This document shows, in pieces, positions 7,557 through 40,698 of a stretch of 64,000 nt of DNA (positions within the stretch are counted from its first letter, which is position 1; each line of letters opens with the position of its first letter). Under the pieces are notes generated by a model. It did no database searches and had not been told where the DNA came from. It was given only the letters and a program-made list of their open reading frames with translations. A program made the translations under genes and the position numbers. Origin of the DNA: Candidatus Omnitrophota bacterium (GTDB lineage Bacteria; Omnitrophota; Gorgyraeia; B26-G9); the NCBI GenBank assembly GCA_043826565.1, contig JBDRPX010000035.1, forward strand, positions 31,299 through 95,298. Reading direction: 5' to 3'.

Positions 7557-7570
7557 TACTATTTACTCCA

Positions 7571-19691: not shown

Positions 19692-20976
19692 GAAACTCCT
19701 CCGGCTCCGGATAACAAACCCTGTTTCTTCCTTCGTGTTTGGCTTTATAAAGCATTTCGTCAGCTTTTTGAATCAACTGATCCATACCCATGGCTTTATC
19801 TTCCGGGAATTTACGCACGACAACACCGACACTAATCGTAAGCTTAATATGTTTATCACCCTGCATTATAAAATCTTCTTTTTCCACGCTCAGACGTAGA
19901 CGTTCGGCAATAGAGAATTGGTCCCCTTCTTTTTCCGCGAGGCCGGGAAGCACAACAACAAATTCTTCGCCGCCATAACGAGCACAAATATCTGTCATAC
20001 GAATACTCTGACTTAAAATTTGCGCGATTTTTTTCAGAACCATATCTCCGTCCTGATGTCCGTAAGTATCATTAATATTCTTAAAATAATCAATATCAAT
20101 CATCAGCAGGCTCATCGGCAATAACTGACGATTACAAAATTCCAACTCTTCATTTATACGTTTTTGTAAAAATGTACGGTTATAAAGCTGAGTTAACCTA
20201 TCCACAGAAGCAAGCCCGCGATGAATCGCGCTTCCTAAAGCAATCGCTCCTTCAGAAACAAGTAGTAGAAAAAATTCTTCTTCATTTTTAATTCTCATGG
20301 CCGCGCTCTCACCGCAAAAAACTACGATAATACCCCAAACTTCATCTTCAAGCACAAGCGGTATCAAAGCAAGAGCGGAAAGCCGGGCCAGATAAGCCGG
20401 CCGTTCTCCTTTTAGAAAATACGATGTCGCCGCGTCATTTCCAAAAGCATCGCCCCGGTCGGTAAAAATTTTTTTCGTTAACATTACCTTCTTGAGCAAT
20501 TCATCAGACTGCTTATATCGCAGAGCCTTTAACATACTGCGGTCAAAATTACAACCCGTCACATAGTCAAATTCATCAGTTCCCGGATCCTGGCAAAGTA
20601 AAAAACATTGGCTATCTCCCGACATATCGGCAGTGATTTTGGAAAACATATTCACGATCAATCTCAATAACTGATCCTTATTTATTGCGGAAGCAAGATC
20701 CTTCCCGAAATTTCTTAACTGAGCAAATTGCTCACGCTGGCGTTTTTCTTTTCTTCTTATTTCCTGAATAATTTCTTCTTTTTCATTTTGAAAAGACGCG
20801 ACAACTGCTTTTAATTCTTCTTCTACTTTAGAAGCATTGATTTTTAAATAAATTGCCGCGGCTAAAAAAGGCCCGCTAACCAGCAGTAAGGCCCCGCCCA
20901 TTAATGGTTTTATAAATAAAAATGCGATTATGAAAATTATGCCTACTGCCAATAATACAATTAAAAATTTCTGCAT
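19681..20976 (-). CDS. Membrane-anchored GGDEF diguanylate cyclase with a GAF-like sensory region
   Basis: GGEEF active-site motif (ARYGGEEFVVVLPG) with ...IDIDYFKNINDTYGHQDGD...; N-terminal TM helices. Confidence 0.85.
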   Translation of the reverse strand: MQKFLIVLLAVGIIFIIAFLFIKPLMGGALLLVSGPFLAAAIYLKINASKVEEELKAVVASFQNEKEEIIQEIRRKEKRQREQFAQLRNFGKDLASAINKDQLLRLIVNMFSKITADMSGDSQCFLLCQDPGTDEFDYVTGCNFDRSMLKALRYKQSDELLKKVMLTKKIFTDRGDAFGNDAATSYFLKGERPAYLARLSALALIPLVLEDEVWGIIVVFCGESAAMRIKNEEEFFLLLVSEGAIALGSAIHRGLASVDRLTQLYNRTFLQKRINEELEFCNRQLLPMSLLMIDIDYFKNINDTYGHQDGDMVLKKIAQILSQSIRMTDICARYGGEEFVVVLPGLAEKEGDQFSIAERLRLSVEKEDFIMQGDKHIKLTISVGVVVRKFPEDKAMGMDQLIQKADEMLYKAKHEGRNRVCYPEPEEFHVQ

Positions 20977-24262: not shown

Positions 24263-25533
24263 AACGGCAGAAAAACACTAAACGTCGCCCCTTTGCCCGG
24301 AGAGCTGCTTACATCAATATTCCCGCTGTGTTCTTTTATTATACTATAAACTATCGCCAATCCAAGCCCGACCCCTTTATCCTTATCACTGGAAAAAGGT
24401 TCAAACAGGTTTTCTTTCATCCCCTTATTAATACCAATTCCATTATCAATAACATCGATCCTGACCATATTCGTTTCTTTATCAATACTTCCCTTAATCG
24501 TAATCTTTCCCTTTTCTCCCACAGCTTCAACCGCATTAATCAAAAGGTTAAAAAACACTTGTTTCATATGCTGTTCATCGCAGGCTGTCTTGATCTTATC
24601 CACACTGTTTTCTTTTTCTATACTCACCCCGGATTTAAAATCCCGGCTATTTGTAACCAGCGTTACGACATCATCAATTACTTCTCCCAGGGAAACTGTT
24701 TGCATTATTAATTTACGCGGTTTAACATACTCCAGCAGGCTGTTAATTATATTATTCAACCGCGTAGTTTCTTTCATGATCAGACTAAACAGCTTCTGGT
24801 GGTTCCCATCTAAAACTAAAGTCTCACTTAAAGCTTCCACACAACCTGAAATAGACGCCAGAGGATTGCGGATTTCATGGGCGGTACTCGCGGCTAACTT
24901 ACCGATCGCCGAGAGACGGTCTTCTCTTCTGAGTTTTTCTCTTAAAGACTTGACTACTTTATCACGCTTTTTTACCTGACCGGAAATATAGGCGCTTAAG
25001 AACCCGATAACCGAAAAAATCGTAACCCGCAAATACAATAATGAAAACACATATGTGCTTTCATGCTGAGTTATCCCGGCAGCATCAACCGGCAATGGGA
25101 TAATCTCATAAAATTCCAGGCTGACAATTCCGCTATATAATGAGCTTCCTAATAAAGCGATTATTACAGCGGCCCGCGGAGAGATCAGAATACTGGCGGC
25201 AATAGACGAAAGCGGAAAAAGTATATCCAGAACCGATTCAATGCCCCCGGTATAATGAACCAATAAAGTTTCAATTAAAAGATCAATGATTATTTGGGAA
25301 TAAAGAAAAAATTTACTATACTTGCCGCTAAGCAGCAATACCGAGTAGGCAATAGTAATCAGGTATATAATGGCTACAAAAAAATACACCGGGGTTTGGG
25401 CTAAACCGAACAATGCGGTGTTAGCAATTAAAATAACCGTGGCAATCGTAAATCTGAAAATGATGATTTTATATAAATCCGCTTTATTACTTAACATAGA
25501 AACTATTATAAAGAAGGTTCCGGGAAAAGTCAA
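24253..25533 (-). CDS. pilS: Sensor histidine kinase with a polytopic membrane N-terminus (PilS-like, partner of pilR)
   Basis: Six N-terminal TM helices, HisKA (AHEIRNPLASISG), and an HATPase_c domain; 426 aa. Confidence 0.85.
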   Translation of the reverse strand: MTFPGTFFIIVSMLSNKADLYKIIIFRFTIATVILIANTALFGLAQTPVYFFVAIIYLITIAYSVLLLSGKYSKFFLYSQIIIDLLIETLLVHYTGGIESVLDILFPLSSIAASILISPRAAVIIALLGSSLYSGIVSLEFYEIIPLPVDAAGITQHESTYVFSLLYLRVTIFSVIGFLSAYISGQVKKRDKVVKSLREKLRREDRLSAIGKLAASTAHEIRNPLASISGCVEALSETLVLDGNHQKLFSLIMKETTRLNNIINSLLEYVKPRKLIMQTVSLGEVIDDVVTLVTNSRDFKSGVSIEKENSVDKIKTACDEQHMKQVFFNLLINAVEAVGEKGKITIKGSIDKETNMVRIDVIDNGIGINKGMKENLFEPFSSDKDKGVGLGLAIVYSIIKEHSGNIDVSSSPGKGATFSVFLPLSR

Positions 25534-25560
25534 ATTTAAAAAATATCTTCAGGCAGGAAA

Positions 25561-25770
25561 TCCATTTTCGGTTCTTTCGCATTTAGGGTGATTGAAAGAA
25601 CCTGATTACAGCGATTAAATACAGATTACACCGATATACTAATAGAAAACAATCTCTGTAATCTTCTTAATAATCTGTGTAATCAGGGTCATTCTTAAAT
25701 TTAACATAACAGCCTATAAGTCAATAAGTTATATAAATTTATTCACCCTAATTAAGAATGACCCCCATTT
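25561..25770. repeat. Intergenic repeat element, copy 2 (same family as 7571-7890), with hairpins GGTTCTTTC/GAAAGAACC (25570-25602) and GGGTCATTCTT/AAGAATGACCC (25686-25764)
   Basis: Shares ordered blocks with copy 1. Hairpin B directly follows the stop of the upstream gene. Hairpin A sits ~37 nt before the kinase start codon. Confidence 0.55.
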
Positions 25771-25789
25771 TCTCCGCTTAATATACCTA

Positions 25790-26284
25790 TTATTTCGGCA
25801 TATTCTTAGACATATTCTCTTTATACATCTGCTCGATCTTCTTTAATACCTCGGGATCTGTGTCCGGATTTTCCAGTTTTACTGCTTCCATCATATCTTC
25901 GGTTACCTGTTCAGGAGTCACTTCCGGCATGGGTTCGGCAATAGACGAGTATTCCAGATCTCCCATTAACATCTCCGGCCTTAACTCCAGATTTTTTAAC
26001 AGCTGTTCCTCCAGCGGGACAGTCATCTCATTCGGATCGACTTTTTTCCTCTGGGGATCTTTTTTGGGAAAATAATCGGTATTGCGGATAATCCTGGCTC
26101 GGGCGGTAACCGGCATATTATTAGCATGAGCTTTTAGTTTTTCCAGATTTTGACGGCTTTGAATCTTGTCAGTTTTTGCCGCGTCCTTATCCGGCGCGAT
26201 AATATAATTCTTTATCCCAAACATAATTACCAATACCAGCAGTAACATGGTAATTCCCACGGTCATTTTTACACTTTTATCCAT
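25790..26284 (-). CDS. Hypothetical bitopic membrane protein; paralog of 30373-30888
   Basis: N-terminal TM helix. Shares a YF(F)PKK....VDP motif with the protein at 30373-30888. Confidence 0.4.
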   Translation of the reverse strand: MDKSVKMTVGITMLLLVLVIMFGIKNYIIAPDKDAAKTDKIQSRQNLEKLKAHANNMPVTARARIIRNTDYFPKKDPQRKKVDPNEMTVPLEEQLLKNLELRPEMLMGDLEYSSIAEPMPEVTPEQVTEDMMEAVKLENPDTDPEVLKKIEQMYKENMSKNMPK

Positions 26285-26306
26285 AACCTTATCTCTCCTA
26301 AATTAA

Positions 26307-29132
26307 TTAGAAATCCATCTTATAAAAGAAAGCACATTCCGCTTCCGCCCACAAAGATTCGGCCCCGCCGAAAAATACATCTGACGGTGAACGTGAAGCA
26401 CTTTTAAATCTCCCATCATATTCCATAAACTTGGAGGGATAGTAACTTTTTAAATAGTATGATCCGGAGTATGATGTACTCGGCGCTATCCTATCCCGGT
26501 CATCATAATACATTCCTGATTCACTGTAATAATCAACAAACTCATTATTAGCCGCGGTAAATCCATCGCTCTGAATTACAAAATAAGCACCCTTTAAATC
26601 CTGAGTTTTCGAACCCCAATATTCCAAGGCCGCGCCTTTACATCCCGCGCCCCGGGTATCCAGCCAGCGGTTAGAAGCAATTAGACAATTATAATCCTGT
26701 GATTGTGTAACACTATTGGCCATCATGCCGTAGGTAAATGATTCACTTTCCCCGCTATTGTCACCATAAGTCCAGGTAAATGTATCGGTCGCCGCCCCTG
26801 TTGTATCAGGCTTATCAAATTTACTTCTATATTGTGAATCTTTACTGTTTATTCTATTATATAAAGTCCTTTCATAGCTATCTGGAATTTCTGAATAATA
26901 ATCAGTATCATCAACTGCCCCGTCTGTATCCAAACGGTCCCGGTTTACCCAAACACCGTCGTCATTATCCGGATTAGTATCTGTCCAGTATTTAATGACA
27001 ATAGGCTCAGGCAACCAGGGGAAATCGAAAATTCTTTCTGCTTCTTTAACATACATATAGGGATAATCCGGATAATGATACGTTGCCGGAGTTACCTGCG
27101 GGTCATTAAAATCATCCGAAAGCAAAAACACTCTTTTTTTGGAAAGGATCGCGCTGGTGCGCCAATCGCACGGATTCGCTCCTCCGGTATTATAATCTCC
27201 TTTTAAATATATATTCTCTTCACTTAAAACCGTAAACCCGTAATGCTCTTTGGCGCGCGGTAAGACCTCCGCATTAGTAAGCCGCACCGGCACCTGGGAA
27301 TAGACAATTCCGTTTCTCGGATATACCGCGGTTTTCTGCATCTTTTGCAAATCTAATTCTAAAACTGTATTCCATTTATTCGTAAACGCGTTTATGAATT
27401 TGACTTTTTCGGCTACTTTTTCTCCTCCGGCAGCTTCATTAAAACGCTTTACTGCCGCATCCACACTATCTTCGATCACACTTTCCCATTCACTATAATC
27501 ACTGAATTCACCGTCAAAATTATCAGCCAAGCCTATATACGTACCATCTTTTTTCGCTAAAACAGAATAAGTTTTGGAAAACTCCGGGGTATCCAAATAC
27601 TCACCTCCGGTATTCTTGTCACGCAAAACATTATCAAGTTTATTTTTTGATAAAAATTCTTTCCAGGCTTTGGGCTGTTTTTTCGAATTAGTATAATTTA
27701 CCATCGCGTTTCCGTTATTCGAAGACCGGTCTGTGCCGTATCTTCCGTCACTGACAACCTCATCATTAAGCATATTCGCATATCCCGGAGTCCCATTTAC
27801 CGCGCTCCAAAAATCCGGCTTTTTGAACATCTCCCAATAGGTCGCGGCATCCGGATGAGCCGCTTTAAAATCCTCCATGGTAGGATAATCTAGGGGGTTA
27901 AGCATAACAACTTCCTTACTCGCGTCTATTTCCCACCAGCTTTTTTCCGCGCTAACCTGAGCGCCATGATTATCAGTAACATAAAATTCCAGCGGGTTCT
28001 CTCCCACAGCGCTTCCGGTTCCGTATTTACTGCCGAAGTATTTACCCCATTCCCAGGGGCTGTCTAGTTTGGCGGGAATTTCCACCCATTCTCTATCTAC
28101 CAGCTCTCCTTTTTCATCCTGCTGATACGGCTTAACCCAAACATTGTATCTGTTTAAAGGCGTACTATCATTATAAAACTCAGAATCCGGGTCTTTAGCA
28201 TAAGGAGCAATATTATTCTTAGCCTGATCATCACCGACAAAATGAGAATCGAAATCAGTATAAGCATAGGTATACCGAGGCCAATCGGTAACAAGATCTC
28301 TGGTGAAATAATAAGCATAGTCTTTCCAGCACCATTCATCTTTAGAATTATAATACCCAAAAGGCCCGGGAGTAAGCGTACTATCGTCACGGCCGCCCAT
28401 ACTCTGTAAATCATCCAAACGGGAGATCGGAGCTTGGCCGTCTTTTACTCCATCATAATTATCCGCATAATAAGGCGCCGGATATCCTGTGGCCGTATAA
28501 TAAATCGATCCCTCCGCACCCGTACTGATCTCCGATACATTTTCAATACGCATCTGGCTGTCTATATAAATATCACCGTTGGAATGAACACCTCCGCCGT
28601 TCAATTTTGAAGCCCGGCCCAAAGCATCGTATAAATCCAAATTATACGGGCTATAAACAAAAAAATCATAAATTCCCTGGCGGGATAAATAATAGGTTAT
28701 TACTCTGGTCTCCTGTCCGCAGGCTCCTTTAGAAACGATTACGGTTGTATCCGACTGGGTCTGATCCGGATAGGCCTTGACCATAAAATCGCCCTTATCA
28801 TGCACATAAAAACCATCACCGTCAAAGGAACAATCTGATCTGGTTTTTATTTTATAACTTTGATCCCCTGATTCTAAAGGGAGAAGCTTATCTCCGGCAT
28901 CATTCCACTTATGGGTATACCATTGCCAGCCCAGATTATACGATTCATGATACGCGTACGAGACGCCTTTTTCCGCCATATTCAAGGCTTTAGCCGCGTC
29001 ATTACTGCGGGTAACATTTTTGCGTTCCGTAACGATCAAAGTAAAAAAAGCGCTGGCCACCACAATAACAACAAATAAAACCATGTACGTGGAGATAAGA
29101 ATAGTACCTTGCTTTTTTCTTAGTGATATCAT
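26307..29132 (-). CDS. Giant (941 aa) pseudopilin-like protein: GspK/PilX-type N-terminal TM segment lacking Glu5, plus a large Y/W/D/N-rich extracellular domain (possible tip adhesin)
   Basis: N-terminus KKQGTILISTYMVLFVVIVVASAFFTLIVTERK resembles PilX_N/GspK. ~50% identity to the 907-aa paralog across the whole length. Confidence 0.55.
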   Translation of the reverse strand: MISLRKKQGTILISTYMVLFVVIVVASAFFTLIVTERKNVTRSNDAAKALNMAEKGVSYAYHESYNLGWQWYTHKWNDAGDKLLPLESGDQSYKIKTRSDCSFDGDGFYVHDKGDFMVKAYPDQTQSDTTVIVSKGACGQETRVITYYLSRQGIYDFFVYSPYNLDLYDALGRASKLNGGGVHSNGDIYIDSQMRIENVSEISTGAEGSIYYTATGYPAPYYADNYDGVKDGQAPISRLDDLQSMGGRDDSTLTPGPFGYYNSKDEWCWKDYAYYFTRDLVTDWPRYTYAYTDFDSHFVGDDQAKNNIAPYAKDPDSEFYNDSTPLNRYNVWVKPYQQDEKGELVDREWVEIPAKLDSPWEWGKYFGSKYGTGSAVGENPLEFYVTDNHGAQVSAEKSWWEIDASKEVVMLNPLDYPTMEDFKAAHPDAATYWEMFKKPDFWSAVNGTPGYANMLNDEVVSDGRYGTDRSSNNGNAMVNYTNSKKQPKAWKEFLSKNKLDNVLRDKNTGGEYLDTPEFSKTYSVLAKKDGTYIGLADNFDGEFSDYSEWESVIEDSVDAAVKRFNEAAGGEKVAEKVKFINAFTNKWNTVLELDLQKMQKTAVYPRNGIVYSQVPVRLTNAEVLPRAKEHYGFTVLSEENIYLKGDYNTGGANPCDWRTSAILSKKRVFLLSDDFNDPQVTPATYHYPDYPYMYVKEAERIFDFPWLPEPIVIKYWTDTNPDNDDGVWVNRDRLDTDGAVDDTDYYSEIPDSYERTLYNRINSKDSQYRSKFDKPDTTGAATDTFTWTYGDNSGESESFTYGMMANSVTQSQDYNCLIASNRWLDTRGAGCKGAALEYWGSKTQDLKGAYFVIQSDGFTAANNEFVDYYSESGMYYDDRDRIAPSTSYSGSYYLKSYYPSKFMEYDGRFKSASRSPSDVFFGGAESLWAEAECAFFYKMDF

Positions 29133-29157
29133 CGTACGCCTCCTCTATTGATAAAAC

Positions 29158-29847
29158 CTAATTGTTACGTGTAGAAACTCTGTTCGTTAATGTTAATCTT
29201 AACGGGCTCGCCAGATTTCTGCCCCTTACAGTATTTTTTTCCGTACGTATCGTAATGTCAAAAATCTCTACTGCGGAACCGGAAAGCGCTTGCGCGTATT
29301 TCTTGCCGCCGGTATCCCAATATAATCCTTCCACCCAAAAATTCGCTAATCCCCGGGCAATCTCCGTTGAAGAAACCAGTTTATTACTATCGTCCCAGAC
29401 CCGGCGCCACAAACGCCCCTCAGTATCCCCGGCAATAATACAATACTCCACATTATAATCAAGTTTCCCGTCTATCCCCCATTCGATACGGCCAAAATTA
29501 TCAAAAACATTTCCGTCACCGTCCCAGTCCACCGGCACCTGAAAAACAATACTCGGGCCTTGAAAAGTTATCGCTGCCCCCAACTGATCAATTGGCTTAT
29601 CATAAATAAAACAGAGATCTTTTTTGGACATCCGCAATTCTTTTACCATTATGATCATGGCTTTCCGCGCGTTTAGATCAACATCCATTCTCGCGGTATT
29701 ATTAGTAATAAATGTATTCTGCGATATAAGTAATGTAAAAAGCGAACCCACGATCACCGCATATATGCCCATGGATACAAGCATTTCCACCAGGGTATAG
29801 CCGCTGTTTTTTTTTGATCCCTTTAAAATCCTTTTTATTTTTTTCAC
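29158..29847 (-). CDS. Minor pilin / pseudopilin, PilW/GspJ-like
   Basis: Prepilin-type N-terminus SG|YTLVEMLVSMGIYAVIVG with Glu5; 229 aa. Confidence 0.6.
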   Translation of the reverse strand: MKKIKRILKGSKKNSGYTLVEMLVSMGIYAVIVGSLFTLLISQNTFITNNTARMDVDLNARKAMIIMVKELRMSKKDLCFIYDKPIDQLGAAITFQGPSIVFQVPVDWDGDGNVFDNFGRIEWGIDGKLDYNVEYCIIAGDTEGRLWRRVWDDSNKLVSSTEIARGLANFWVEGLYWDTGGKKYAQALSGSAVEIFDITIRTEKNTVRGRNLASPLRLTLTNRVSTRNN

Positions 29848-29850
29848 TTT

Positions 29851-30345
29851 TTAATCCCGGTTATAAATTGCCGCTTCTACGGCGCACGGAGAATCAATAT
29901 CTCCATTACCGTCAAGATCCGCCAAGGTTATCCCTAAAATTCCTTCTTTACCATTATTAATAGCTTCGCCGATAATTCTTTCCCCTTGTTTCCAGCAGAC
30001 AATTACTCTGATTCTTAACATCGCATCTGTTCCGGTTCCGAAACTTTCCAGCAAATCCACTTTTACTAATCCCTGATGCGCGACATTACGAGCCATAAGT
30101 TCATCCACATAAAAAATCTGTCCGTCATAACCTGCTCTAATATCATCAAAGGCTACGTTACGAATTTCATCCATAACCCCTTCCGCCGCGTTCATGCAGG
30201 TAACTGATAATTCCCCGGATTCGGCCAGGCGCGAAAGATACAATGCGGACTGAAAAGTAGTACCCACAGCCACAACCATAATAGCCATGGACATAATAAT
30301 TTCAATAATTGTAAATCCTTTTTCTTTCTTGATCCGCCTGCTCAT
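29851..30345 (-). CDS. Minor pilin / pseudopilin, PilV/GspI-like
   Basis: KG|FTIIEIIMSMAIMVVAVG prepilin N-terminus; 164 aa. Confidence 0.62.
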   Translation of the reverse strand: MSRRIKKEKGFTIIEIIMSMAIMVVAVGTTFQSALYLSRLAESGELSVTCMNAAEGVMDEIRNVAFDDIRAGYDGQIFYVDELMARNVAHQGLVKVDLLESFGTGTDAMLRIRVIVCWKQGERIIGEAINNGKEGILGITLADLDGNGDIDSPCAVEAAIYNRD

Positions 30346-30372
30346 TAATTAAATCCTCTCATCTAACTACAA

Positions 30373-30888
30373 TCACTGCGGTTCATCATCGGAAAACAAA
30401 GTATCCCCCCCATCAAAACTTGGCCCGGGATTAAGCCATTCCGGGATATTTTCCTCCGGGCCCCCCTCTTGCCCAGAAGCAGTTTGTTGTTCAATCAGCT
30501 TTTCGGGCTTTTCTTCTGCGGCCTGATTATTGATCTGATCTCCGGTGATCAGAATCCCCGAATTCTCGATCAATTTTTTATTTCCCCCGGGATCAACACG
30601 TTTAACTTTTTTCTTAGGGAAAAAATATGAATTTTTTCTTACGGCGAGATTTGTGCGGGCTTTTATGCCTAATGGCGCTTTAGAAGGAGAGCCATACTCT
30701 GAGGAATATTTTGCTTTTCTGGACACTTCCTCGCGCAAATTTTTTTTCGTATCTGTTTCAATTATCGAAACCCACCCGTCTTTACTTCTGATTATCTTTA
30801 TGGCATCAACTATAATGATCAACACTAATAAAAGACTACATATCGCTATGGTAATTTTTACCCCTTTTTCCATGTCTTTTTCCCCCAA
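30373..30888 (-). CDS. Hypothetical bitopic membrane protein; paralog of 25790-26284
   Basis: N-terminal TM helix and the shared YFFPKK...VDP motif. Confidence 0.4.
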   Translation of the reverse strand: MGEKDMEKGVKITIAICSLLLVLIIIVDAIKIIRSKDGWVSIIETDTKKNLREEVSRKAKYSSEYGSPSKAPLGIKARTNLAVRKNSYFFPKKKVKRVDPGGNKKLIENSGILITGDQINNQAAEEKPEKLIEQQTASGQEGGPEENIPEWLNPGPSFDGGDTLFSDDEPQ

Positions 30889-30911
30889 TTAATTATTTTT
30901 AAAATACCGCT

Positions 30912-33635
30912 TTAGAAATTCTCCTGATAAAAGAAATCACAGGACTCTTCTTTCCATAAAGACTGCGCCCCTCCGAAAAACACATCCGAAGCCGATCTAG
31001 TCGCGGTTTGAAAACGCTTATCATAATTCAAACTCCAAGGAGGTGATTTCGTACCATAATAAACCGTGCCGCTGACATAACGACCGCGGCTGCTGGTCCC
31101 TAACCCGGACTCATAATCCACAAAATCACCGGTAGGCGCGGTAAATTCGCCATCTTTATCCAGCACAAAATACGCGCCGTTTAAATACTTTTTCATGTCC
31201 TTACTGCCATTATTCCAGTTTTCCAGGTTATCGCCTTTTGTCCCGCGGTAACAAGCGATCAGCGTATTGAAAGTATAGTTATCATAAACCCGATTCGGCA
31301 TCATCCCGTAAGTATAATTTTCTCCGCTGTCCGGCCAGGAAAAAGTCGCCGAAGCTGTTCCGGTGGGATCATGCTTATTAAACATCGCGCGGTACGTTCC
31401 GTCTTTTTTATCAATGAGATCTTTTAACTGCTGTTCATTAGCATCGTCAATATTGGTGTAGCGGTCATAAGTCAGGTAATTCAAATAATCCCGGTAAACC
31501 CACTGCCCCCCGCCTGCATCCGGATTTGCTTCTTCATATATTCCGCTGCCTTCGTCTTTCTTAACATAAAGATAAGGATAATCCCGGTAATGCTCAGTTG
31601 CCGGCACTATTTGAGGATCATTAAAATCATCGGATAAAGTAAAAATACGCTTTTTACCGATAATCGCAGAAGTAACCCATTCATCAGTATTAAAATTTCC
31701 CTGCAAATAGATATTTTCCTCTCCTAAGACCGTAAACCCGTAGGAATCCATTTTTCGCGGCAGTTTTTCCGCATTGGTCAGGCGCAAAGGAACCTGGCTG
31801 TAGACAATACCGTTATCCGGAGTTTTCCCTTCTTTTTGCATCCGTCCTAGATTTATCTCCAAGACAACATTCCATTGATTCGTAAATGTATTGATAAATT
31901 TTACTTTACTGGCCACGGGCCGGGCTGTACCGTCATTAAGTTCTGTCACAGCCTTATCAATACTCTTTTCTAAAACCTTCATCCATTCTTCATAATCATT
32001 ATATTTACCGTCAAAATCATCCGCAAGATTAATAAGCAGTCCGCTGCGTTCGGCCATGCGCGCATAAGTAATATCAAATTCCGGCGGCGCCAGATACTCT
32101 CCTCCGGTATTGCCGTCCCGCACAATCCCGTCTAATTTTGATTTCTTTAAAAAAGAATCCCAAGCATCCGGCTGTTTCTCCGAGTTCGTATGCTTAACCG
32201 GTATCTTTCCTCCGGAAGCCCTCTCCGAACCATAAGTGCCGTCTTTAATATCTTCACTCATATTATCCGGCCAATCCTCTGAACCGGAAAGGTCTTTGCC
32301 TATAGCTGTCCAGTACCGCGGATCTTTAAACATATCCCAATATGATTTAGCCTGCGGATGTTCATCCAGTTTAGCGGGATCAACCATTTCTACTGACACG
32401 GGAGTGTGATGCCCACCTCCGGTTATTTCCCAATAAGTATTCTCCACATTCACTTTATTACCGTCATTATCATAAGTGTAAAAATGCAATGGCTGTTCTC
32501 CGGCACCGCTTCGATATCCATAAGCATCGCCTTTATATTTGCTCCAATCCCAGGTCTGATCCATTTCCGCGGGTATCTGGGTCCATTCTCCGGAAATGAT
32601 ATCGCCGCAATCAGTTTCTCCTAAATATGGTTTGACCCAGGTATTATAACCGTTTAAAGGCTCAGAGCTGTCATTTATAATTGATGAGCTTACCCGGTTA
32701 TCTCTGTTCCCGGGATTAATATTATTATAATCAAGCATATCTCCGTAAAAATACCATTCCGTACTCCGAAAAGCACTGGTCAGCCAAGTACTAGTGCTCC
32801 CGAAATAACTCGCGTTACTCTGATAATTCCAATGCCGGTCACCATATTTATCCCAGTAATAATAACCAAAATCACCGGGATTATCTTTAGCATCATCACG
32901 AAAAATATCATTCGGACGGTCAAGCCGGACCATCGGCGCCATACCGTCTTTTACTCCGTCATAATTATCCGCGTAATATGGAGCCGGGTACTGGTCAGAA
33001 GCCGCGTAATAAATGACCCCGTTTTCTCCGGCACTTAATTCTGAAATATTTTCCAATCTTACCGGATTATCAATCCGGATATTGCCGTTGGTATGGATAC
33101 CTCCGCCGTAAAGCTTTGGGAAATTACCCACCTCATTATCGAGATCCATATCATAAGGACTGTAAAAGAAAAAATCATATATACCCTGGCGGCTGAGCGT
33201 ATAGGTGATCACGCGCCGGTTTTCCCCCTCAATGCCCATGGCGACAATAACTGTCTCATCTTCGTCATCCCGGTTTGGATATGCTTTAACCATGAATTTT
33301 CCGTCATTAGACTGATAATATCCGTTAGCATCAAAAGAGCAATCCGCTCTTAAGAGCTGGCCATAACTGCTGTCTCCGGGAGCCAGCTTAAGGAGTTTAT
33401 CTTCATCATTATTCCATTTATGCGTATACCACTGCCATCCGTAATTTTGTGATTCATAATAAGCATAAGCTACGCCCATTTCCGCATAACCAAGCGCTTT
33501 TTTCCCTCCGGACTCGCGGGCTATACTTTTCTGTTCCGTGATCACAAATGTACACAGAGAGCTGGCCACAACAATAATAATAAACAATACCAGATATGTC
33601 GCAATAAGCATTGTACCTTTATTATTTATCTTCAT
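30912..33635 (-). CDS. Giant (907 aa) GspK/PilX-like pseudopilin paralog
   Basis: N-terminus NKGTMLIATYLVLFIIIVVASSLCTFVITEQK. Many collinear conserved blocks with 26307-29132 (GWQWYTHKWN, APYYADNYDGVKDG, KQPxAWxxFLxKxKLD, YGFTVLxEENIYLxG, SDDFNDPQ, YGMMxN). Confidence 0.55.
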   Translation of the reverse strand: MKINNKGTMLIATYLVLFIIIVVASSLCTFVITEQKSIARESGGKKALGYAEMGVAYAYYESQNYGWQWYTHKWNNDEDKLLKLAPGDSSYGQLLRADCSFDANGYYQSNDGKFMVKAYPNRDDEDETVIVAMGIEGENRRVITYTLSRQGIYDFFFYSPYDMDLDNEVGNFPKLYGGGIHTNGNIRIDNPVRLENISELSAGENGVIYYAASDQYPAPYYADNYDGVKDGMAPMVRLDRPNDIFRDDAKDNPGDFGYYYWDKYGDRHWNYQSNASYFGSTSTWLTSAFRSTEWYFYGDMLDYNNINPGNRDNRVSSSIINDSSEPLNGYNTWVKPYLGETDCGDIISGEWTQIPAEMDQTWDWSKYKGDAYGYRSGAGEQPLHFYTYDNDGNKVNVENTYWEITGGGHHTPVSVEMVDPAKLDEHPQAKSYWDMFKDPRYWTAIGKDLSGSEDWPDNMSEDIKDGTYGSERASGGKIPVKHTNSEKQPDAWDSFLKKSKLDGIVRDGNTGGEYLAPPEFDITYARMAERSGLLINLADDFDGKYNDYEEWMKVLEKSIDKAVTELNDGTARPVASKVKFINTFTNQWNVVLEINLGRMQKEGKTPDNGIVYSQVPLRLTNAEKLPRKMDSYGFTVLGEENIYLQGNFNTDEWVTSAIIGKKRIFTLSDDFNDPQIVPATEHYRDYPYLYVKKDEGSGIYEEANPDAGGGQWVYRDYLNYLTYDRYTNIDDANEQQLKDLIDKKDGTYRAMFNKHDPTGTASATFSWPDSGENYTYGMMPNRVYDNYTFNTLIACYRGTKGDNLENWNNGSKDMKKYLNGAYFVLDKDGEFTAPTGDFVDYESGLGTSSRGRYVSGTVYYGTKSPPWSLNYDKRFQTATRSASDVFFGGAQSLWKEESCDFFYQENF

Positions 33636-33651
33636 AACATACTCTCCTTTT

Positions 33652-34332
33652 CTAATTACGCCAACAAACTCTATTATTTAAAACAACAGTAAGAGGGTTA
33701 TCCAAAGTCCTCCCCTTAATTGTATCTTTTTCCGCGGTAATATTAATTTCAATAAGTTCTATGGTTGTATCCACAACATATTTTTTTAAACCGGTATCAT
33801 AACTGTACCCGATAATTGAAAAATTTGAGATATCATTAGCCACAACTGTTTGCTCGACCAGAGTACTGGTCTCATCCCATACCCGGCGCAAGATCTCTTC
33901 GGCGACCGCGTCCCAGCAATATTCTATCTGCCAGTCCAGGTTATTTTCCGCTCCCCATTCCACACGCCCGAAATTATCCAGGGAATCTCCGTCCGCGTCC
34001 CAATCAACCGGAACCTGGAAAACAATACTTTTAGCATCACTGGCATCAATGAGAACACCGGCTTGATCCAGCGGCCGGTCATAGAGCGTGGTATTTAATC
34101 CCGACCCTACCCTAACCTCTTTAACAATAGAATTCATACCTTTTCCCGCCAGCCGTTTAACATCCCATTTCGCAAAACACTGCTGAGAAATCCGGTTATA
34201 AGATATAAGCATACTAAATAAAGAACCAATCACTACTGAATAAATCCCCATAGATACAATGATCTCAGTCAAAGTAAATCCCTGTTCTTTTTTTCTTTTT
34301 CTACATTTTAATATTTTTTTAATTAGGCTCAC
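33652..34332 (-). CDS. Minor pilin / pseudopilin, PilW/GspJ-like (module 1)
   Basis: QG|FTLTEIIVSMGIYSVVIG; 226 aa. Confidence 0.6.
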   Translation of the reverse strand: MSLIKKILKCRKRKKEQGFTLTEIIVSMGIYSVVIGSLFSMLISYNRISQQCFAKWDVKRLAGKGMNSIVKEVRVGSGLNTTLYDRPLDQAGVLIDASDAKSIVFQVPVDWDADGDSLDNFGRVEWGAENNLDWQIEYCWDAVAEEILRRVWDETSTLVEQTVVANDISNFSIIGYSYDTGLKKYVVDTTIELIEINITAEKDTIKGRTLDNPLTVVLNNRVCWRN

Positions 34333-34354
34333 AAATAACTCCTTTTAGTAAACG

Positions 34355-34819
34355 CTAACGAAAAATAACCGCGGTTTCCATAGCACAGGGCGAATCAATC
34401 AGGCCGTTTAAATTAGTATCTTCTCCGCTGTCTAAAACCCCGTTTAAATTAGCATCTTCTCCGATCATTCTGTTTCCCTGCCGCCAGCAAACAACAATCC
34501 GGAATTTTAAAAGAAAAGAAGGTTCCGTAAGATCTACAGTGATTGTTCCAAGATTAGGCACCCCTTTATTGGTCAGTTCATTTAAGGTGAATTGCGTATT
34601 ATGATAGTTTGGCGAGATATCGTCAAAGGGGACATTTTTTATCTCATCTCTTATCCCTTCAAGAGAATTCATAACCGGAGTAATATTGTCATTAAGTTCA
34701 TTAAGCTGTAGTAAATAACTTGTCGCCTGAAAAGATGAACCGATCGCTACAGACATTATGCCTACTGAAACAAGAATCTCTACTAGAGAAATTCCTTTGT
34801 TATTTTTCAATAACCTCAT
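34355..34819 (-). CDS. Minor pilin / pseudopilin, PilV/GspI-like (module 1)
   Basis: KG|ISLVEILVSVGIMSVAIG; 154 aa. SD GAGGGG immediately follows the leader terminator. Confidence 0.62.
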   Translation of the reverse strand: MRLLKNNKGISLVEILVSVGIMSVAIGSSFQATSYLLQLNELNDNITPVMNSLEGIRDEIKNVPFDDISPNYHNTQFTLNELTNKGVPNLGTITVDLTEPSFLLKFRIVVCWRQGNRMIGEDANLNGVLDSGEDTNLNGLIDSPCAMETAVIFR

Positions 34820-34830
34820 TATTTTACCCC

Positions 34831-34878
34831 TCTAAAAAATAAAATCCGACCTACCGTCCTTTTCCTTCGGTAGCTCGG
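34831..34878 (-). terminator. Intrinsic terminator / riboswitch expression platform 12 nt upstream of the first minor-pilin gene
   Basis: Minus-strand CCGAGCUACCG-(loop)-CGGUAGGUCGG stem (plus 34846-34878), followed by AUUUUAUUUUUU. Confidence 0.65.
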
Positions 34879-34900: not shown

Positions 34901-35050
34901 CTTCGGTAACCCGGCTGTCTGAAAAGGTATTACCTTTAGACCCGTGGCTTTGCTCCGGACTGACCAATGTCCAGAATCCCTAGCGCAAATCTCAACCGCT
35001 ATTATGGGATGTCCCCGCCTTTCGACGGGTTTGCCATTATCGGTAAAGGA
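34901..35050 (-). ncRNA. Candidate c-di-GMP-I (GEMM) riboswitch aptamer with an inserted extra hairpin
   Basis: Minus-strand RNA contains GGCAAACC, a CCGUC-GAAA-GGCGG tetraloop hairpin, GGGGAC, an inserted hairpin (AUCCC..UAGCG..CGCUA..GGGAU), GGAGCAAAGCCACGGGUCUAAAGG and CAGCCGGGUUACCGAAG. The last three are near-matches to conserved GEMM-I blocks (GGGACGCAAAGCC, GGGUUACCG). Confidence 0.5.
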
Positions 35051-35100: not shown

Positions 35101-35129
35101 AGTATACCCTATATACCGAACTTTGTCAA
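35101..35129 (-). promoter_or_regulatory. Sigma-70 promoter (TTGACA-17 nt-TATACT) driving the riboswitch leader / minor-pilin module
   Basis: Minus-strand -35 at 35129-35124 and -10 at 35106-35101. Confidence 0.55.
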
Positions 35130-36607: not shown

Positions 36608-38332
36608 TTATTCTGAAGAGGTCACCCGTAAAACTTCTTCTAATGTAGTTTTCCCTTCCAAAAAATTATGTATCCCGGCCCCACGTAAAGTAACCATGCC
36701 CACTTCTTTTTTAGCATAGCGTTTAATCTCATCGCTGGAACATCGTTTCATGATCATCTCCCGGATATCATCATTAAGTAATAAAATTTCAATCATCGCA
36801 AAACGCCCGCGATATCCTCCGGTGCATTTATTGCATCCTTTCCCTTTATACACAGTTAATTCTTCGGATTTTTTATCAATCTCCATCCGATCCAGCACTG
36901 ACTGAGGTACCTTATACGCCTCTTTACAATGAGAACAAACTTTACGGGCAAGCCTTTGCGCAACTACAGCCACAACACTCGAAGCAATTAAAAACGGTTC
37001 AATACCCATATCAATAAGTCTGGTTACCGCTCCCGGCGCGTCATTAGTATGGAGAGTACTTAAAAGCATTGCTCCGGTTAATGCCGCTTTAATCGCGATA
37101 TCACCTGTTTCAAAGTCTCTGATTTCTCCCACCATTAGAACATCCGGATTCTGCCTTAAAATCGATCTTAGCCCGGAGGAAAAAGTAAGTCCGATATCCG
37201 GTTTAACCTGTACCTGGGTAATTCCTTCAACCTGATATTCAACCGGATCTTCGACGGTAATAATATTTTTTTCCGGAGTATTAAGTTTATTTAAAACAGA
37301 ATACAAAGTCGTTGATTTCCCGCTTCCGGTAGGCCCGGTAACCAGGATCATGCCATACGGCCGGGTAATCGCGTAGTTAAAATCTTCCAGTGCTTTTGGC
37401 AGGAATCCTAAGGCTTCCAATCCAATGCTTAAATTGGATTTATCCAAAGCCCGCATAACAACTTTTTCCCCAAAACTGATCGGCAGGACAGAAACACGAA
37501 AATCAACTTCTTTTTGCGCGAATCTGACTTTAAACCTGCCGTCCTGAGGAATATGCCGCTGCGTAATATCCAGATTTGACATTATTTTTAAGCGTGCGGC
37601 AATAGCGTTCTGTATTTTTTTCGGCAAAATCGCGGCTTCGTGCAATGCTCCGTCAATTCTATATCTAACTCTAATATTATGTTCATACGGTTCAATATGT
37701 ATATCCGAAGCTTCTTTGATCAGGGATTCGGCGATTAAAGCATCGATCATCTTAACAATCGGAGCTTCTTCACTGGAACGGATTACATCACCGATATCAA
37801 CCTGGTCGTGCTGCTGAACCACTTCGATATCGTCTTCAGTCATATTCTTAACTAAATCATCAATTGACTGATTAAGCTTTTTCTGCGCCTCCACCCCTCC
37901 CGGATGATATAATCTATCTATGGTCGAAGTAACCGCACTCACGGTACAGACAGCCGGAGCCACATCATAGCCGGTAAGCGCTTTTATATCATCTATGGCT
38001 AATACATTTGATGGGTCACTCATGGCAATGCTCAGCATACTTCCAATCCTGGAGATAGCTAAGAGCTGGTAATGACGGGCTACATGTTCCGGGATTATCT
38101 TAACCGCTTTTTCCGCAGCATTAAACTTAGTAAGGTCAATTAGCGGCACATGCAGATATTTACAAAAACAAATCGCGATATTTTCTTCGGTTGTGAATTT
38201 ATTTTCTACTAATATAGTCGCTAACTGTCCGCCTTTCTTTTGCTGAATATTCAAGGCTTCATTGAGTGTTTTTTCGTCAATAAGATTGTGCTCTATTAGT
38301 AGTTCATTAAGTCTTTTTTTTACTCTACGCAT
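36608..38332 (-). CDS. pilB: Type IV pilus assembly ATPase PilB/GspE with an N-terminal MshEN (GspE-N) domain and tetracysteine motif
   Basis: N-terminal RLNELLIEHNLIDEKTLNEALNIQ (MshEN), Walker A GPTGSGKSTT, and CSHC...CNKC zinc site; 574 aa. Confidence 0.9.
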   Translation of the reverse strand: MRRVKKRLNELLIEHNLIDEKTLNEALNIQQKKGGQLATILVENKFTTEENIAICFCKYLHVPLIDLTKFNAAEKAVKIIPEHVARHYQLLAISRIGSMLSIAMSDPSNVLAIDDIKALTGYDVAPAVCTVSAVTSTIDRLYHPGGVEAQKKLNQSIDDLVKNMTEDDIEVVQQHDQVDIGDVIRSSEEAPIVKMIDALIAESLIKEASDIHIEPYEHNIRVRYRIDGALHEAAILPKKIQNAIAARLKIMSNLDITQRHIPQDGRFKVRFAQKEVDFRVSVLPISFGEKVVMRALDKSNLSIGLEALGFLPKALEDFNYAITRPYGMILVTGPTGSGKSTTLYSVLNKLNTPEKNIITVEDPVEYQVEGITQVQVKPDIGLTFSSGLRSILRQNPDVLMVGEIRDFETGDIAIKAALTGAMLLSTLHTNDAPGAVTRLIDMGIEPFLIASSVVAVVAQRLARKVCSHCKEAYKVPQSVLDRMEIDKKSEELTVYKGKGCNKCTGGYRGRFAMIEILLLNDDIREMIMKRCSSDEIKRYAKKEVGMVTLRGAGIHNFLEGKTTLEEVLRVTSSE

Positions 38333-38343
38333 TCATTATTCCT

Positions 38344-40059
38344 TTAATCATCCGCAGTTAAACGGGTGATCTCTTCTAAACTTGTAAGCCCTTTCAGTGC
38401 TTTAATAACACCGTTTTCCCGTAAAGTGGTCATTCCTTCCTCTCGCGCTTTTTTCTTGATGATCCCTTCCTGGGCTTTTTGCATAACCAAGTCCCGGATA
38501 TCCGGAGTAAAAATCAAAACCTCACATAAACCGAGTCTTCCCCGATAACCGGTATTACTACATTTAGCACATCCTTTAGGTTTGAATAACTCTTTAGCAT
38601 CCTCGTTAATAAAAAATCTTTTTCTTATCTCCGGGGTTATCTCATATGCTTCTTTACAATTATCACAAAGTTTTCGGATCAATCTCTGGGCACATACCAA
38701 TAAGCACGAGGAAGTGATCAGAAACGGTTCAATACCCATATTTACCATTCTGGTTACCGCTCCGGAAGCTTCCGTCGTATGTAATGTGCTTAAAACTAAA
38801 TGCCCGGTAAGAGCAGCTTTAATCGCGATATCCAGAGTTTCTGTATCACGAATTTCACCGACCATAATGATATCCGGGTCCTGACGTAAAAATGATCGTA
38901 AAGCACCGCTAAAAGTAAGCCCGATCTCCGGGTTAACACTAACCTGATTAATTCCCGGCAATTGGTATTCAACCGGATCCTCTGCGGTAACCAGATTTAG
39001 TTCCGGATTATCCACATATTTTAAAACCGAATACAAAGTAGTCGATTTTCCGCTTCCGGTCGGCCCGACAACAAGGATCATTCCATGCGGTTCCTGCGCA
39101 AGGGTCTTAACTCTTTGTATTGTTTCAACCTCAAAACCTAAAGCGTCCAAATCAAGAATTACCGTAGTCTTATCTAATATACGCAAAGCAATTTTCTCTC
39201 CGTGGGTGCACGGCATAATCGAAACACGAAAATCAATTTCCCGGTCACCGATTTTAATTTTAAAACGGCCGTCTTGCGGTAAACGATGTTCCGCTATATT
39301 TAAAGTGGACATGACTTTAATCCGGGAAATAATCGCGTCCTGCATATGTACCGGCGGTGCCGGAAATTCCTGTAGAATTCCATCGAGGCGATAACGTATC
39401 CGCAGGCGTTTTTCCTGCGGTTCAATTAAAACATCGCTCGCTTTGTGTTTAATCGCTTCCGCAAGAAGCATATTCGTAACTTTTACAACCGGAGTATCTT
39501 CAACTTGAGCAAGAAGTTGTTTTTCACTAAGCTGCCTATCTTCAGAAGCACCTTCATCCTGAAATATTTGGATATCCATGTCCTTTACATCATCAATAAT
39601 TGCTCTCATCTGATCATCCGATGACCCGCTATAATGTTTTTCAATTGCTTCCTTAAGCTCCTTTTCAGCCGCAATAACAACTTTCAGCTGATAATTGGTA
39701 AGCACTTTAAGTTCATCAATAGCCAGGACATTAAGCGGGTCGACCATGGCGACTGTTAAAACTTTTCCAATTTTAGAAATCGCAATCGCCAGATATTTTT
39801 CCGCCAGCTGCCGGGGAATGATCTGAACCACATCCTGATTTATTTTGAACTTAGCAAGGTTGATCGGGGGGATATTCAAACTTTGACTTAATACAATTAC
39901 CAAGTCACGCTGACTAATATAACCCATTGTCGTCAGGACTTCACTTAAACGCCGTCCCGTTTCTTTTTGCAAAGCAATAGCTTCCTCAAGCTGCTCCTTT
40001 GTTAAGAAATTAGAGCGGGTTAAAACCTCCAGCATTTTGTCTTTAATACCTTGAACCAT
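38344..40059 (-). CDS. Second PilB/GspE-family ATPase paralog with an N-terminal MshEN domain
   Basis: KMLEVLTRSNFLTKEQLEEAIALQ, GPTGSGKSTT, and CDNC...CAKC; 571 aa. Confidence 0.88.
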   Translation of the reverse strand: MVQGIKDKMLEVLTRSNFLTKEQLEEAIALQKETGRRLSEVLTTMGYISQRDLVIVLSQSLNIPPINLAKFKINQDVVQIIPRQLAEKYLAIAISKIGKVLTVAMVDPLNVLAIDELKVLTNYQLKVVIAAEKELKEAIEKHYSGSSDDQMRAIIDDVKDMDIQIFQDEGASEDRQLSEKQLLAQVEDTPVVKVTNMLLAEAIKHKASDVLIEPQEKRLRIRYRLDGILQEFPAPPVHMQDAIISRIKVMSTLNIAEHRLPQDGRFKIKIGDREIDFRVSIMPCTHGEKIALRILDKTTVILDLDALGFEVETIQRVKTLAQEPHGMILVVGPTGSGKSTTLYSVLKYVDNPELNLVTAEDPVEYQLPGINQVSVNPEIGLTFSGALRSFLRQDPDIIMVGEIRDTETLDIAIKAALTGHLVLSTLHTTEASGAVTRMVNMGIEPFLITSSCLLVCAQRLIRKLCDNCKEAYEITPEIRKRFFINEDAKELFKPKGCAKCSNTGYRGRLGLCEVLIFTPDIRDLVMQKAQEGIIKKKAREEGMTTLRENGVIKALKGLTSLEEITRLTADD

Positions 40060-40077: not shown

Positions 40078-40698
40078 CTATTTCGGCTCATAATACTGGG
40101 CGATAGCATTATTAATATCCGAAAAGGTAGAAATAAACGTCTCAACATCAAGTCCGGTAATCTGTTTTATTTCTTCTTTCGCAGCAGAGTTAAGAGGATC
40201 AGCCATGGCAACAGTAAGAATGTTGCCAATTTTATCGATCGGGATAAGATTGTATTTCTGAGCAATATCTTTTGAAATAATTTTTACTAATTCGGTTTCA
40301 ATTTCATAATTTTCCAACTGTAAATAAGGAAATCCGTATTGAGTCACCATAGTACTCACAAGGTCTTCTTCCGAAAGGTAACCCATTTCGATAATTAGTT
40401 GAAATAAAGATCCTCCCTTTTTAGTTTGCATCTCCAACGCTTTATCTAACTGCTCCTGGGTAATAATGCCGATATCCAACAGAATGTTTTCCAGTTTCTG
40501 CGCTGTATGCGTCTGCTCATAAATACTTTCCTCTATCTGCTCCGAAGTAACATACTTAAGTTTGACTAAAATCTGACCGACTAAACCACCTTCCTGAAGC
40601 TGAACTTCCAGAGCTTTTTCCAATTGCTCCTGGGTGATCAGATTCTTCTCGATCAAAAGTTGTCCGATTTGTTTCTTTTTATTTTTTTTCAATTCCAA
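40078..40698 (-). CDS. Stand-alone protein made of two MshEN (GspE N-terminal, c-di-GMP-binding type) domains with no ATPase domain
   Basis: Two copies of the MshEN consensus: QIGQLLIEKNLITQEQLEKALEVQ and KLENILLDIGIITQEQLDKALEMQ; 206 aa. Confidence 0.65.
   Translation of the reverse strand: MELKKNKKKQIGQLLIEKNLITQEQLEKALEVQLQEGGLVGQILVKLKYVTSEQIEESIYEQTHTAQKLENILLDIGIITQEQLDKALEMQTKKGGSLFQLIIEMGYLSEEDLVSTMVTQYGFPYLQLENYEIETELVKIISKDIAQKYNLIPIDKIGNILTVAMADPLNSAAKEEIKQITGLDVETFISTFSDINNAIAQYYEPK

Follow-up and report, generated by a model that had tools for sequence, protein, structure and literature searches.

Which part of a type IV pilus is built by a pair of collinear four-gene modules that each encode a giant protein of more than 900 amino acids (aa)? 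The question is raised by a 64,000-nucleotide (nt) stretch of DNA from Candidatus Omnitrophota bacterium (assembly GCA_043826565.1, contig JBDRPX010000035.1, positions 31,299 to 95,298 of the forward strand; hereafter the window), in which Pfam annotation shows a complete type IVa pilus (T4aP) locus with both modules on the minus strand, flanked by pilC and pilS. Module 1 spans positions 34819-30373 and module 2 positions 30345-25790, and each encodes two small canonical prepilins (V-like and W-like), a giant protein and a small bitopic membrane protein (Table 1). Our analysis indicates that the priming and tip complex of the T4a pilus is the probable product of each module, with the predicted beta-solenoid of the giant protein as its cap.

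An earlier interpretation of the bare nucleotide sequence (the sequence-only reading) had described these genes as a tandemly duplicated minor-pilin cassette. The inventory of that description held: all eight open reading frames (ORFs) of the two collinear minus-strand modules were recovered intact from the ORF list, and the giants, whose large domains had been put at about 50% identity, share 49% identity over their full length by BLASTP (E=0). The 226/229-aa pair is 46% identical (E=8e-67), the 154/164-aa pair 43% (E=2e-43) and the small membrane protein pair 27% (E=1e-7), the YF(F)PKK..VDP stretch recognized earlier being common to the last pair both in this comparison and in a wider alignment. 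As judged from these alignments, paralogue similarity is far above chance. NCBI entries with locus tags ABII88_10005 and ABII88_10000, together with a Logan contig, contain identical versions of the 907-aa, the 226-aa and the small membrane protein; for gene 4 of module 1, NCBI places the start at the ATG at 30873, giving 166 aa.

The four small pilins all pass the Pfam N_methyl cutoff (22.9-23.9 bits against 21.2) and carry the signature G↓F/I/Y-T/S-L-x-E (arrow, junction after Gly-1) with Glu5 present. Together with two PilA-like major pilins, they make up the six canonical prepilins detected by a six-frame motif scan of the window. The prepilin motif with Glu5 therefore stands, whereas the PilV/GspI and PilW/GspJ labels given to these proteins draw on size, gene order and weak matches. 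Both gspI (TIGR01707, E 0.033-0.15) and gspJ (TIGR01711, E 0.04) fall far under their cutoffs; a distant homologue of the 226-aa protein is named PilW by JGI (E=9.5e-9), NCBI names the 226-aa protein itself a 'type II secretion system protein', and the 229-aa protein shows weak N-terminal matches to Verru_Chthon cassette protein C and to ComGE. In family alignments, the V-like protein has a conserved Cys pair and, towards its C-terminus, Asp/Asn-rich repeats of Ca-loop-like type, and the W-like protein has a conserved VPVDWDxDGD loop and an NRVxWRN C-terminus. In the window, the GEDxNxNGVLDxGEDxNGNGELDSPC loops with the Cys pair of the V-like proteins and the VPVDWDxDGDxxD loop of the W-like proteins resemble Ca2+-binding motifs. 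Profile searches of the PDB returned weak calmodulin-loop matches for both (E 0.6-1.3), apart from which their matches were confined to pilin N-terminal helices.

The giants open with a class III signal-like segment, consisting of a basic leader, Gly-1 and a hydrophobic helix (KKQG↓TILISTYMVLFVVIVVASAFF in the 941-aa protein and NKG↓TMLIATYLVLFIIIVVASSL in the 907-aa protein). Here, the mature +5 residue is Ser in the former (KKQG↓TILIS) and Ala in the latter (NKG↓TMLIA), whereas all six canonical prepilins of the window have Glu5. The same holds across the family alignment, in which Gly-1 is nearly invariant (G9 at least 90% conserved) and Glu5 is absent; the pseudopilin-like transmembrane segment lacking Glu5 that had been proposed from the sequence is thus retained, with a long helix predicted at this point. 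Also confirmed was the richness of the giants in Tyr, Trp, Asp and Asn (Y 8%, W 2.6-2.7%, D 9.5%, N 5.5-7.2%). The giants are acidic (D+E 15.1% versus K+R 10.1-10.2%), and both Trp and Tyr are conserved across the family. In agreement with the first description, neither a PilY1 C-terminal beta-propeller (PF05567) nor a vWA domain was found in the giants, and no PilY1 was found among the window ORFs scanned.

The large domain had been considered to be of no recognized fold; this view did not survive structure prediction. An AlphaFold2 (AF2) model of the 941-aa giant, built on a 20-sequence alignment (pLDDT 73.9, pTM 0.62), contains a 60-residue N-terminal helix (residues 8-67) and a sheet (74-150), followed by beta-rich and mixed regions. 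Its fold neighbours comprise GspK (score 8.5; 2.4 Å over 89 residues), DUF3494 ice-binding solenoids (7.4-7.8), ComZ (7.5; 246 residues), XcpX (6.0), GspI (4.9-5.6) and several type IV pilins, and beta-helix adhesins are among the fold-space neighbours of the solenoid. In the predicted model, the pilin alpha/beta core is structurally similar to GspK and is joined to a large, triangular, ice-binding-protein-like beta-solenoid. This model supports an assignment of the giants to the GspK/PilX class of minor pilins, and in it the large domain is an enlarged, insertion-rich beta-solenoid of the ComZ/ice-binding-protein type. The conserved C-terminal tail block was predicted with pLDDT values of 75 and 62 at full length and of 44, 36 and 37 without the pilin domain, a hint that would fit packing of the tail back onto the N-terminal domain, as in a ComZ-type architecture with the solenoid placed between the last two strands of the pilin fold.

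Sequence searches revealed a sizeable family around these proteins. A word-indexed search with the giant returned 18 clusters, all source-named ones being Omnitrophota or "PVC group", while an exhaustive profile search yielded 319 representative clusters, of which 96 fell below 1e-30. Members mostly measure 700-1100 aa and are alike in their first 240 residues and in a central block. When species-representative genomes were scanned with the A1 alignment, close relatives were found exclusively in Omnitrophota metagenome-assembled genomes, except for one genome labelled "PVC group" and one labelled Planctomycetia. PilX_N (PF14341) matches occur in two of 20 close and two of 52 distant members (best E 2.5e-4). 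Neither a single-sequence phmmer search nor a 122-sequence family profile found a significant PDB match for the giants (no ComZ, GspK or PilY1), although the profile matched Geobacter PilA-N (E 0.018) and tapirin 4WA0 (E 0.017) weakly.

Related loci from other genomes (given L numbers, such as L001) were compared with the two modules in an outgroup-rooted tree of the giants with 300 bootstraps. The 907-aa giant belongs to clade B (99.7% support), together with the giant of the second L001 module and those of the single-module loci L002 and L004, and the 941-aa giant pairs with the first module of L001 (89% support). Each window giant has orthologues elsewhere, and the identities of the V-like and W-like proteins follow the same pattern. 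Because the window giants were sisters in 0 of 300 bootstraps, a recent tandem duplication was rejected. The modules are, by this tree, old paralogues, types A and B, whose lineages split before these genomes diverged; two collinear paralogous modules do exist, as first described, but a tandem duplication would imply a local and recent event. Pairwise dN/dS, which had been suggested as a check, was unusable, with dS saturated (2.1-2.9) and undefined for the small membrane proteins.

The same comparison bears on whether one module is simply a redundant duplicate heading for loss, without a distinct function. Such redundancy would agree with the single modules of several relatives (L002, L004, L005 and L006) and with the absence of a separate riboswitch for module 2 in this genome. 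It is nevertheless very improbable: no ORF is disrupted, dN (0.44-0.55) lies far below the saturated dS (>2) for three gene pairs, and both lineages have been kept in other genomes. Moreover, divergence between the window giants is limited mainly to residues 241-320, 401-480 and 681-920, the scaffold at 41-240 and 481-680 being conserved. Arrangement varies among relatives; module order in L001 is swapped relative to the window, and the giant comes first in its second module. In L007, the second module (4728-8097) has its own riboswitch and encodes a 567-aa PilX-like large protein that has only the N-terminal helix in common with the giants, suggesting that this cassette has kept the plan but changed its head.

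Which of the four genes form the conserved unit became apparent from distant relatives. Hidden Markov models (HMMs) of the close family detected V-like and W-like genes beside distant giants in two further loci, L023 (86 and 60 bits) and L022 (76 and 30 bits), and the phylogenetic affinities of V, W and giant agree. The small membrane protein was not found in either locus in the same HMM search. It has only five homologue clusters, all of them Omnitrophota hypotheticals without Pfam domains, with an invariant F and P in the motif (alignment A7). A role for it as a core tip component was rejected on account of its absence beside distant giants. The presence of V and W there without the fourth gene points to a triad as the conserved unit, as expected of a GspI/J/K-like complex. 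The four-gene cassette of the sequence-only reading thus describes each window module correctly but not the conserved core, and the fourth gene is, on its phyletic distribution, a clade-specific orphan accessory. Both distant loci lie outside a T4aP locus: L023 (3726-11045) has the order giant, V, W, giant, and in L022 (6841-11225) the triad is located downstream of RcpC, a secretin and a fused TadZ/TadA-like set.

Transcription of the modules appears to be coupled to cyclic di-GMP (c-di-GMP). The leader of module 1 combines a promoter-like site, a c-di-GMP-I riboswitch aptamer, a terminator-like hairpin that may serve as expression platform, and a ribosome-binding site (RBS) (Table 1). The aptamer carries an insertion, and equivalent aptamers with insertions of about 57-76 nt are found in L001 (4694-4851), L005 (8587-8747) and L007 (8589-8749). 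Its two extra stems show compensatory base changes among the four loci, and the inserted aptamer may represent a structural variant of the c-di-GMP-I class. Across the six related loci L001, L002, L004, L005, L006 and L007, a c-di-GMP-I-type aptamer precedes every module, including both modules in L001 and L007. Orthologous leaders score 35.5-40.3 bits with RF01051 or 67.7-74.6 bits with RF03167, the GGC variant. The latter was detected before the single modules of L002 (8697-8782, 67.7 bits) and L004 (8504-8587, 74.6 bits), where a different ligand specificity is a possibility.

The terminator hairpin with its U-tract is kept in all eight pilus-module leaders examined. In the window and in L001, L002, L004, L005 and L007, its 5' arm (AGCCGAGCUACCGAAG) is a near-copy of the aptamer 3' strand (AGCCGGGUUACCGAAG); because the two are nearly identical, the terminator 3' arm can pair with either. 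The minimum free energy fold of the leader keeps both aptamer and terminator, and the alternative pairings give no unambiguous ON or OFF reading. As for module 2, the inter-module gap is only 27 nt long, leaving no room for an aptamer of its own; it lacks a terminator but does contain an RBS (GAGAGG). The simplest reading is therefore a single riboswitch-controlled transcript, with module 2 probably co-transcribed with module 1. Taken literally, the claim that only module 1 lies behind the riboswitch is correct, but it probably holds for position rather than control, and in relatives each module has its own riboswitch. With a shared transcript, differential regulation of the two tips is unsupported in this genome. 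The window contains a further c-di-GMP-I riboswitch, which scores higher (61.5 bits) and lies before an ORF truncated at the window edge; the TPS secretion domain of this ORF (PF05860, E 4e-23) suggests a filamentous-haemagglutinin-type beta-helix adhesin, so that both window riboswitches would control surface-adhesion genes.

From the gene content, paralogy, predicted folds and conservation of riboswitch and terminator, we infer complex formation, location at the tip and an adhesive function. The two canonical minor pilins would take the GspI/PilV and GspJ/PilW roles. Their assembly with the Glu5-less giant would take place in the inner membrane by way of the N-terminal helices, and the resulting complex would initiate polymerization of the PilA major pilin and come to lie at the distal end of the fibre, where the solenoid would act as a cap in place of a PilY1-type protein. 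The conserved aromatic, Asp/Asn-rich surface would be the likely ligand-binding face, and a surface glycan or polysaccharide of the substrate or host cell the probable ligand. Given their conserved scaffold and variable loops, the modules would provide two tip variants on one machine. Since transcription would pass through the riboswitch and an intrinsic terminator, tip production would be tied to the second messenger c-di-GMP, which the GGDEF cyclase of the locus makes and which both PilB proteins sense through their MshEN domains. Adhesion is suggested indirectly, by Trp/Tyr conservation, acidity, the beta-helix adhesin neighbours, the tapirin match and the riboswitch-linked adhesin gene. 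The proposal of a tip-complex and adhesin module in two diverged versions is hence upheld by the GspK fold, the T4aP setting and the triad; its adhesive part is the less direct one, and the two tips would coexist.

Several observations weigh against this interpretation. The giants match no curated Pfam or NCBIfam model at threshold: PilX_N reaches 14.1 bits on the 907-aa giant (cutoff 25.5, E=0.049) and gives no match on the 941-aa giant, while NCBIfam T2SS_GspK (E 0.022) and HpsA (best E 0.0013) each give sporadic, sub-threshold matches in one of 52 distant members. No sequence homology to ComZ was detected with either a single sequence or the 122-sequence profile. The structure check gave a GspK-like pilin core and a ComZ-type solenoid in the AF2 model, but Foldseek against the PDB returned nothing significant (top match ComZ, E 0.09). 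The window motif scan found no GspH/FimU/FimT-like fourth pilin inside the module, and support for complex formation is limited to co-inheritance of the triad. Processing of the giants by a prepilin peptidase is putative, a globular head of ~100 kDa may be hard to pass through a secretin, and the supposedly alternative tips would coexist rather than switch, as both modules are probably co-expressed.

The ~100-kDa size, which is large for transit on a pilus tip, would suit giants that are not fibre subunits. They could instead be beta-helix surface proteins that are secreted or anchored in the membrane, or belong to an HpsA-like or type II secretion system (T2SS)-like secretion pseudopilus with a piston of small pilins. 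The PilW-like proteins weakly match the hormogonium polysaccharide pseudopilin HpsC (E 0.004-0.007), one distant giant the HpsA model just mentioned, and NCBI's T2SS name for the 226-aa protein points the same way; ComZ itself is no clear PilD substrate (PMC6561018). Yet every HpsA and HpsC match is far under cutoff (HpsC 16-16.8 bits against 200). None of the Verru_Chthon (TIGR02596-02600) and hpsA-D models passed, no match to protein A was returned, and Verru_Chthon protein C (TIGR02599) reached 24.5 bits against a cutoff of 256.5 over the N-terminal 67 residues only; the likeness to these cassettes is in architecture only. The T4aP locus, moreover, holds two PilT retraction ATPases, PilA major pilins and PilQ, and a predicted GspK-like fold with V and W partners is what a tip subunit requires. 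We therefore regard a non-fibre role as unlikely and favour the tip complex.

The locus itself reads, in minus-strand order, two pilT genes, an MshEN protein gene, two pilB genes, pilC, riboswitch, module 1, module 2, pilS and pilR, followed by two pilA genes, a GGDEF gene, pilM(N), pilO and pilQ, with housekeeping genes on both flanks. It encodes two PilT-like ATPases, two PilB proteins that both carry MshEN domains, and the secretin PilQ. With its GGDEF cyclase, its two MshEN-PilB proteins, a stand-alone MshEN protein and the riboswitch, the pilus locus is, by its domain content, wired to c-di-GMP at several levels. The GGDEF cyclase gene lies between pilA and pilM, and this arrangement of c-di-GMP genes is kept in relatives. 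Adjoining the pilT genes is a gene for a radical SAM protein with a B12-binding-like N-terminal domain, which is kept beside pilT in several Omnitrophota loci (L002 1-512; L004 1-1275). Within the 256-nt spacer that separates module 2 from pilS, a long inverted repeat (GGGGGTCATTCTTAAT ... TTAAGAATGACCC) is accompanied by several GATTACA-like repeats. The TTG listed as the pilS start is overlapped by a strong promoter-like site, and the true start is for this reason probably a downstream ATG.

Also present in the window, 27 kb from the modules, is a gene for a ComEC-like competence channel (PF03772, E 4e-56, plus DUF4131), and an organism with such a gene may take up DNA. On account of this gene, a ComZ-like role is possible for the giants, in which the modules would form the tip of a competence pilus and the giants would be extracellular DNA receptors rather than adhesins. 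We judge this improbable. The ComEC-like gene is distant and lies among housekeeping genes, and the other riboswitch of the window controls an adhesin gene. The strong acidity of the giants, together with their conserved Trp/Tyr-rich character, suits glycan binding better than DNA binding, and the DNA-binding lysines of ComZ could not be mapped onto the giants because the two have no sequence similarity.

Table 1. Coordinates of the module genes, their leader and further features of the window.
Feature	Position	Strand	Description
Promoter-like site TTGACA-17-TATACT	35101..35129	-	Upstream of leader; 11/12 consensus, best in scanned region; consensus match only
c-di-GMP-I riboswitch aptamer	34902..35045	-	Rfam RF01051, 44.9 bits vs gathering 35, E=1.5e-5, model positions 1-87
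Aptamer insertion	34954-35010	-	57 nt, two hairpins, after first hairpin
Terminator-like hairpin (CCGAGCTACCG / CGGTAGGTCGG) and U-tract	34834..34878	-	Putative expression platform; from sequence and fold
RBS GAGGGG	34827-34832	-	Between terminator-like hairpin and module 1 ATG at 34819
Module 1 (type B) gene 1	34355-34819	-	V-like; 154-aa canonical prepilin, PilV/GspI-sized; N_methyl 22.9 bits; motif KG↓ISLVE
Module 1 gene 2	33652-34332	-	W-like; 226-aa canonical prepilin, PilW/GspJ-sized; N_methyl 23.8 bits
Module 1 gene 3	30912-33635	-	907-aa giant, probable minor pilin; predicted GspK-like pilin domain and enlarged ComZ-type beta-solenoid
Module 1 gene 4	30373-30888	-	Small bitopic membrane protein, 171 aa listed; SYYFPKK..VDP motif, acidic tail
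Module 2 (type A) gene 1	29851-30345	-	V-like; 164-aa canonical prepilin, PilV/GspI-sized; N_methyl 23.9 bits; motif KG↓FTIIE
Module 2 gene 2	29158-29847	-	W-like; 229-aa canonical prepilin, PilW/GspJ-sized; N_methyl 23.9 bits; motif SG↓YTLVE
Module 2 gene 3	26307-29132	-	941-aa giant, probable minor pilin; protein used for AF2 modelling
Module 2 gene 4	25790-26284	-	164-aa small bitopic membrane protein; DYFPKK..VDP motif
Spacer between module 2 and pilS	25534-25790	-	Inverted repeat and GATTACA-like repeats
Promoter-like site at pilS	25505-25533		Overlaps listed TTG start
c-di-GMP genes of the locus	19681-20976, 36608-40059, 40078-40698	-	GGDEF cyclase, two MshEN-PilB, stand-alone MshEN
Radical SAM gene	43403-45121	-	Adjoins pilT genes
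ComEC-like gene	62044-63579	-	Competence channel
Second c-di-GMP-I riboswitch	830-924	-	Precedes ORF 1-747
ORF with TPS domain	1-747	-	Cut by window edge

The proposed tip has precedents in two well-studied systems. ComZ of Thermus thermophilus combines a GspK-like pilin with an ice-binding-protein-type solenoid and is located with PilA2 at the tip of the competence pilus (PDB 6QVI; PMC6561018). The predicted giant fold shows the same pairing; however, the giants are ~1.7-1.8 times longer (about twice the size), with helical and beta insertions, their acidic, aromatic-rich character does not indicate DNA binding, and the Omnitrophota modules add a small membrane protein of their own and a riboswitch. 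In cyanobacteria, a PilX beta-solenoid has been proposed as a tip plug replacing PilY1, with an enlarged subfamily carrying extra domains, and a single machine uses two sets of minor pilins to prime distinct filaments, with second-messenger control involved (bioRxiv 10.64898/2026.02.12.705559). The Omnitrophota system is alike in its solenoid-bearing PilX-type subunit, its two sets per machine and its second-messenger control. It differs in that the cyanobacterial sets are FimT-PilW-PilV-PilX tetrads, as opposed to two canonical pilins and a giant; in that the giants are equal-sized close paralogues without a split into small Com and large EPS forms; and in its control by a cis-acting riboswitch, while homology to HpsA is not established.

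Other comparisons are less close. In the GspI-GspJ-GspK complex (PDB 3CI0, 5VTM), GspK has a small alpha-helical insertion, whereas the giants have a solenoid of ~800 residues; the locus described here is a retractile T4aP locus rather than a T2SS, and the GspI/J/K sequence models fell short of threshold. Myxococcus xanthus is reported to have several PilVWX(FimU)-PilY1 minor-pilin sets that give pili for different conditions (PMC7541494, PMC8833165, PMC9109919). These complexes are alike in using minor pilins and a large tip protein for pilus priming and adhesion. Tapirins of Caldicellulosiruptor (PDB 4WA0, 6N2C) are T4P-linked cellulose adhesins, and the paper on them (bioRxiv 10.1101/359786) describes no pilin domain. 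The borderline match of the giants to them is too weak for a claim of homology. With respect to regulation, a class I (or I-GGC) aptamer stands before each Omnitrophota tip module and is clade-conserved, whereas the riboswitch of Clostridioides difficile belongs to class II and precedes the major pilin gene pilA1. Control of type IV pilus genes by a c-di-GMP riboswitch is on record for the latter species (Bordeleau et al., 2015, cited in PMC6916266).

The tip architecture is therefore already known from Thermus and cyanobacteria, and the Omnitrophota family is a new version of it. What is new here is that curated models leave the family a sequence orphan, that its proteins are about twice as large as ComZ, that the module has no GspH/FimT-like partner, and that an orphan membrane partner and a conserved riboswitch coupling accompany it. 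A broader and more tentative possibility, which we put forward with some reserve, is that the triad is a portable, Omnitrophota-specific tip cassette for both T4aP and Tad-like machines, with a riboswitch per copy and hypervariable solenoid loops that set the host, prey or substrate surface to which these ultra-small and possibly host-dependent cells attach; the fourth protein might then represent a novel factor that helps to assemble or anchor oversized tip subunits.

Type IVa pili are nearly universal in Omnitrophota and are thought to mediate host attachment (PMC10066038). Members of this lineage are uncultured and mostly ultra-small, and no prior annotation explained the specificity of pilus attachment. 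The present analysis assigns a predicted fold and a probable role to a family without a Pfam or NCBIfam model (319 clusters, ~700-1100 aa) and would extend the solenoid-bearing PilX/ComZ tip design to a lineage labelled PVC group by the sources. Moreover, pilus-tip modules are directly linked to a c-di-GMP riboswitch in a conserved manner, which bears on how the level of a second messenger may set the adhesive identity of a pilus.

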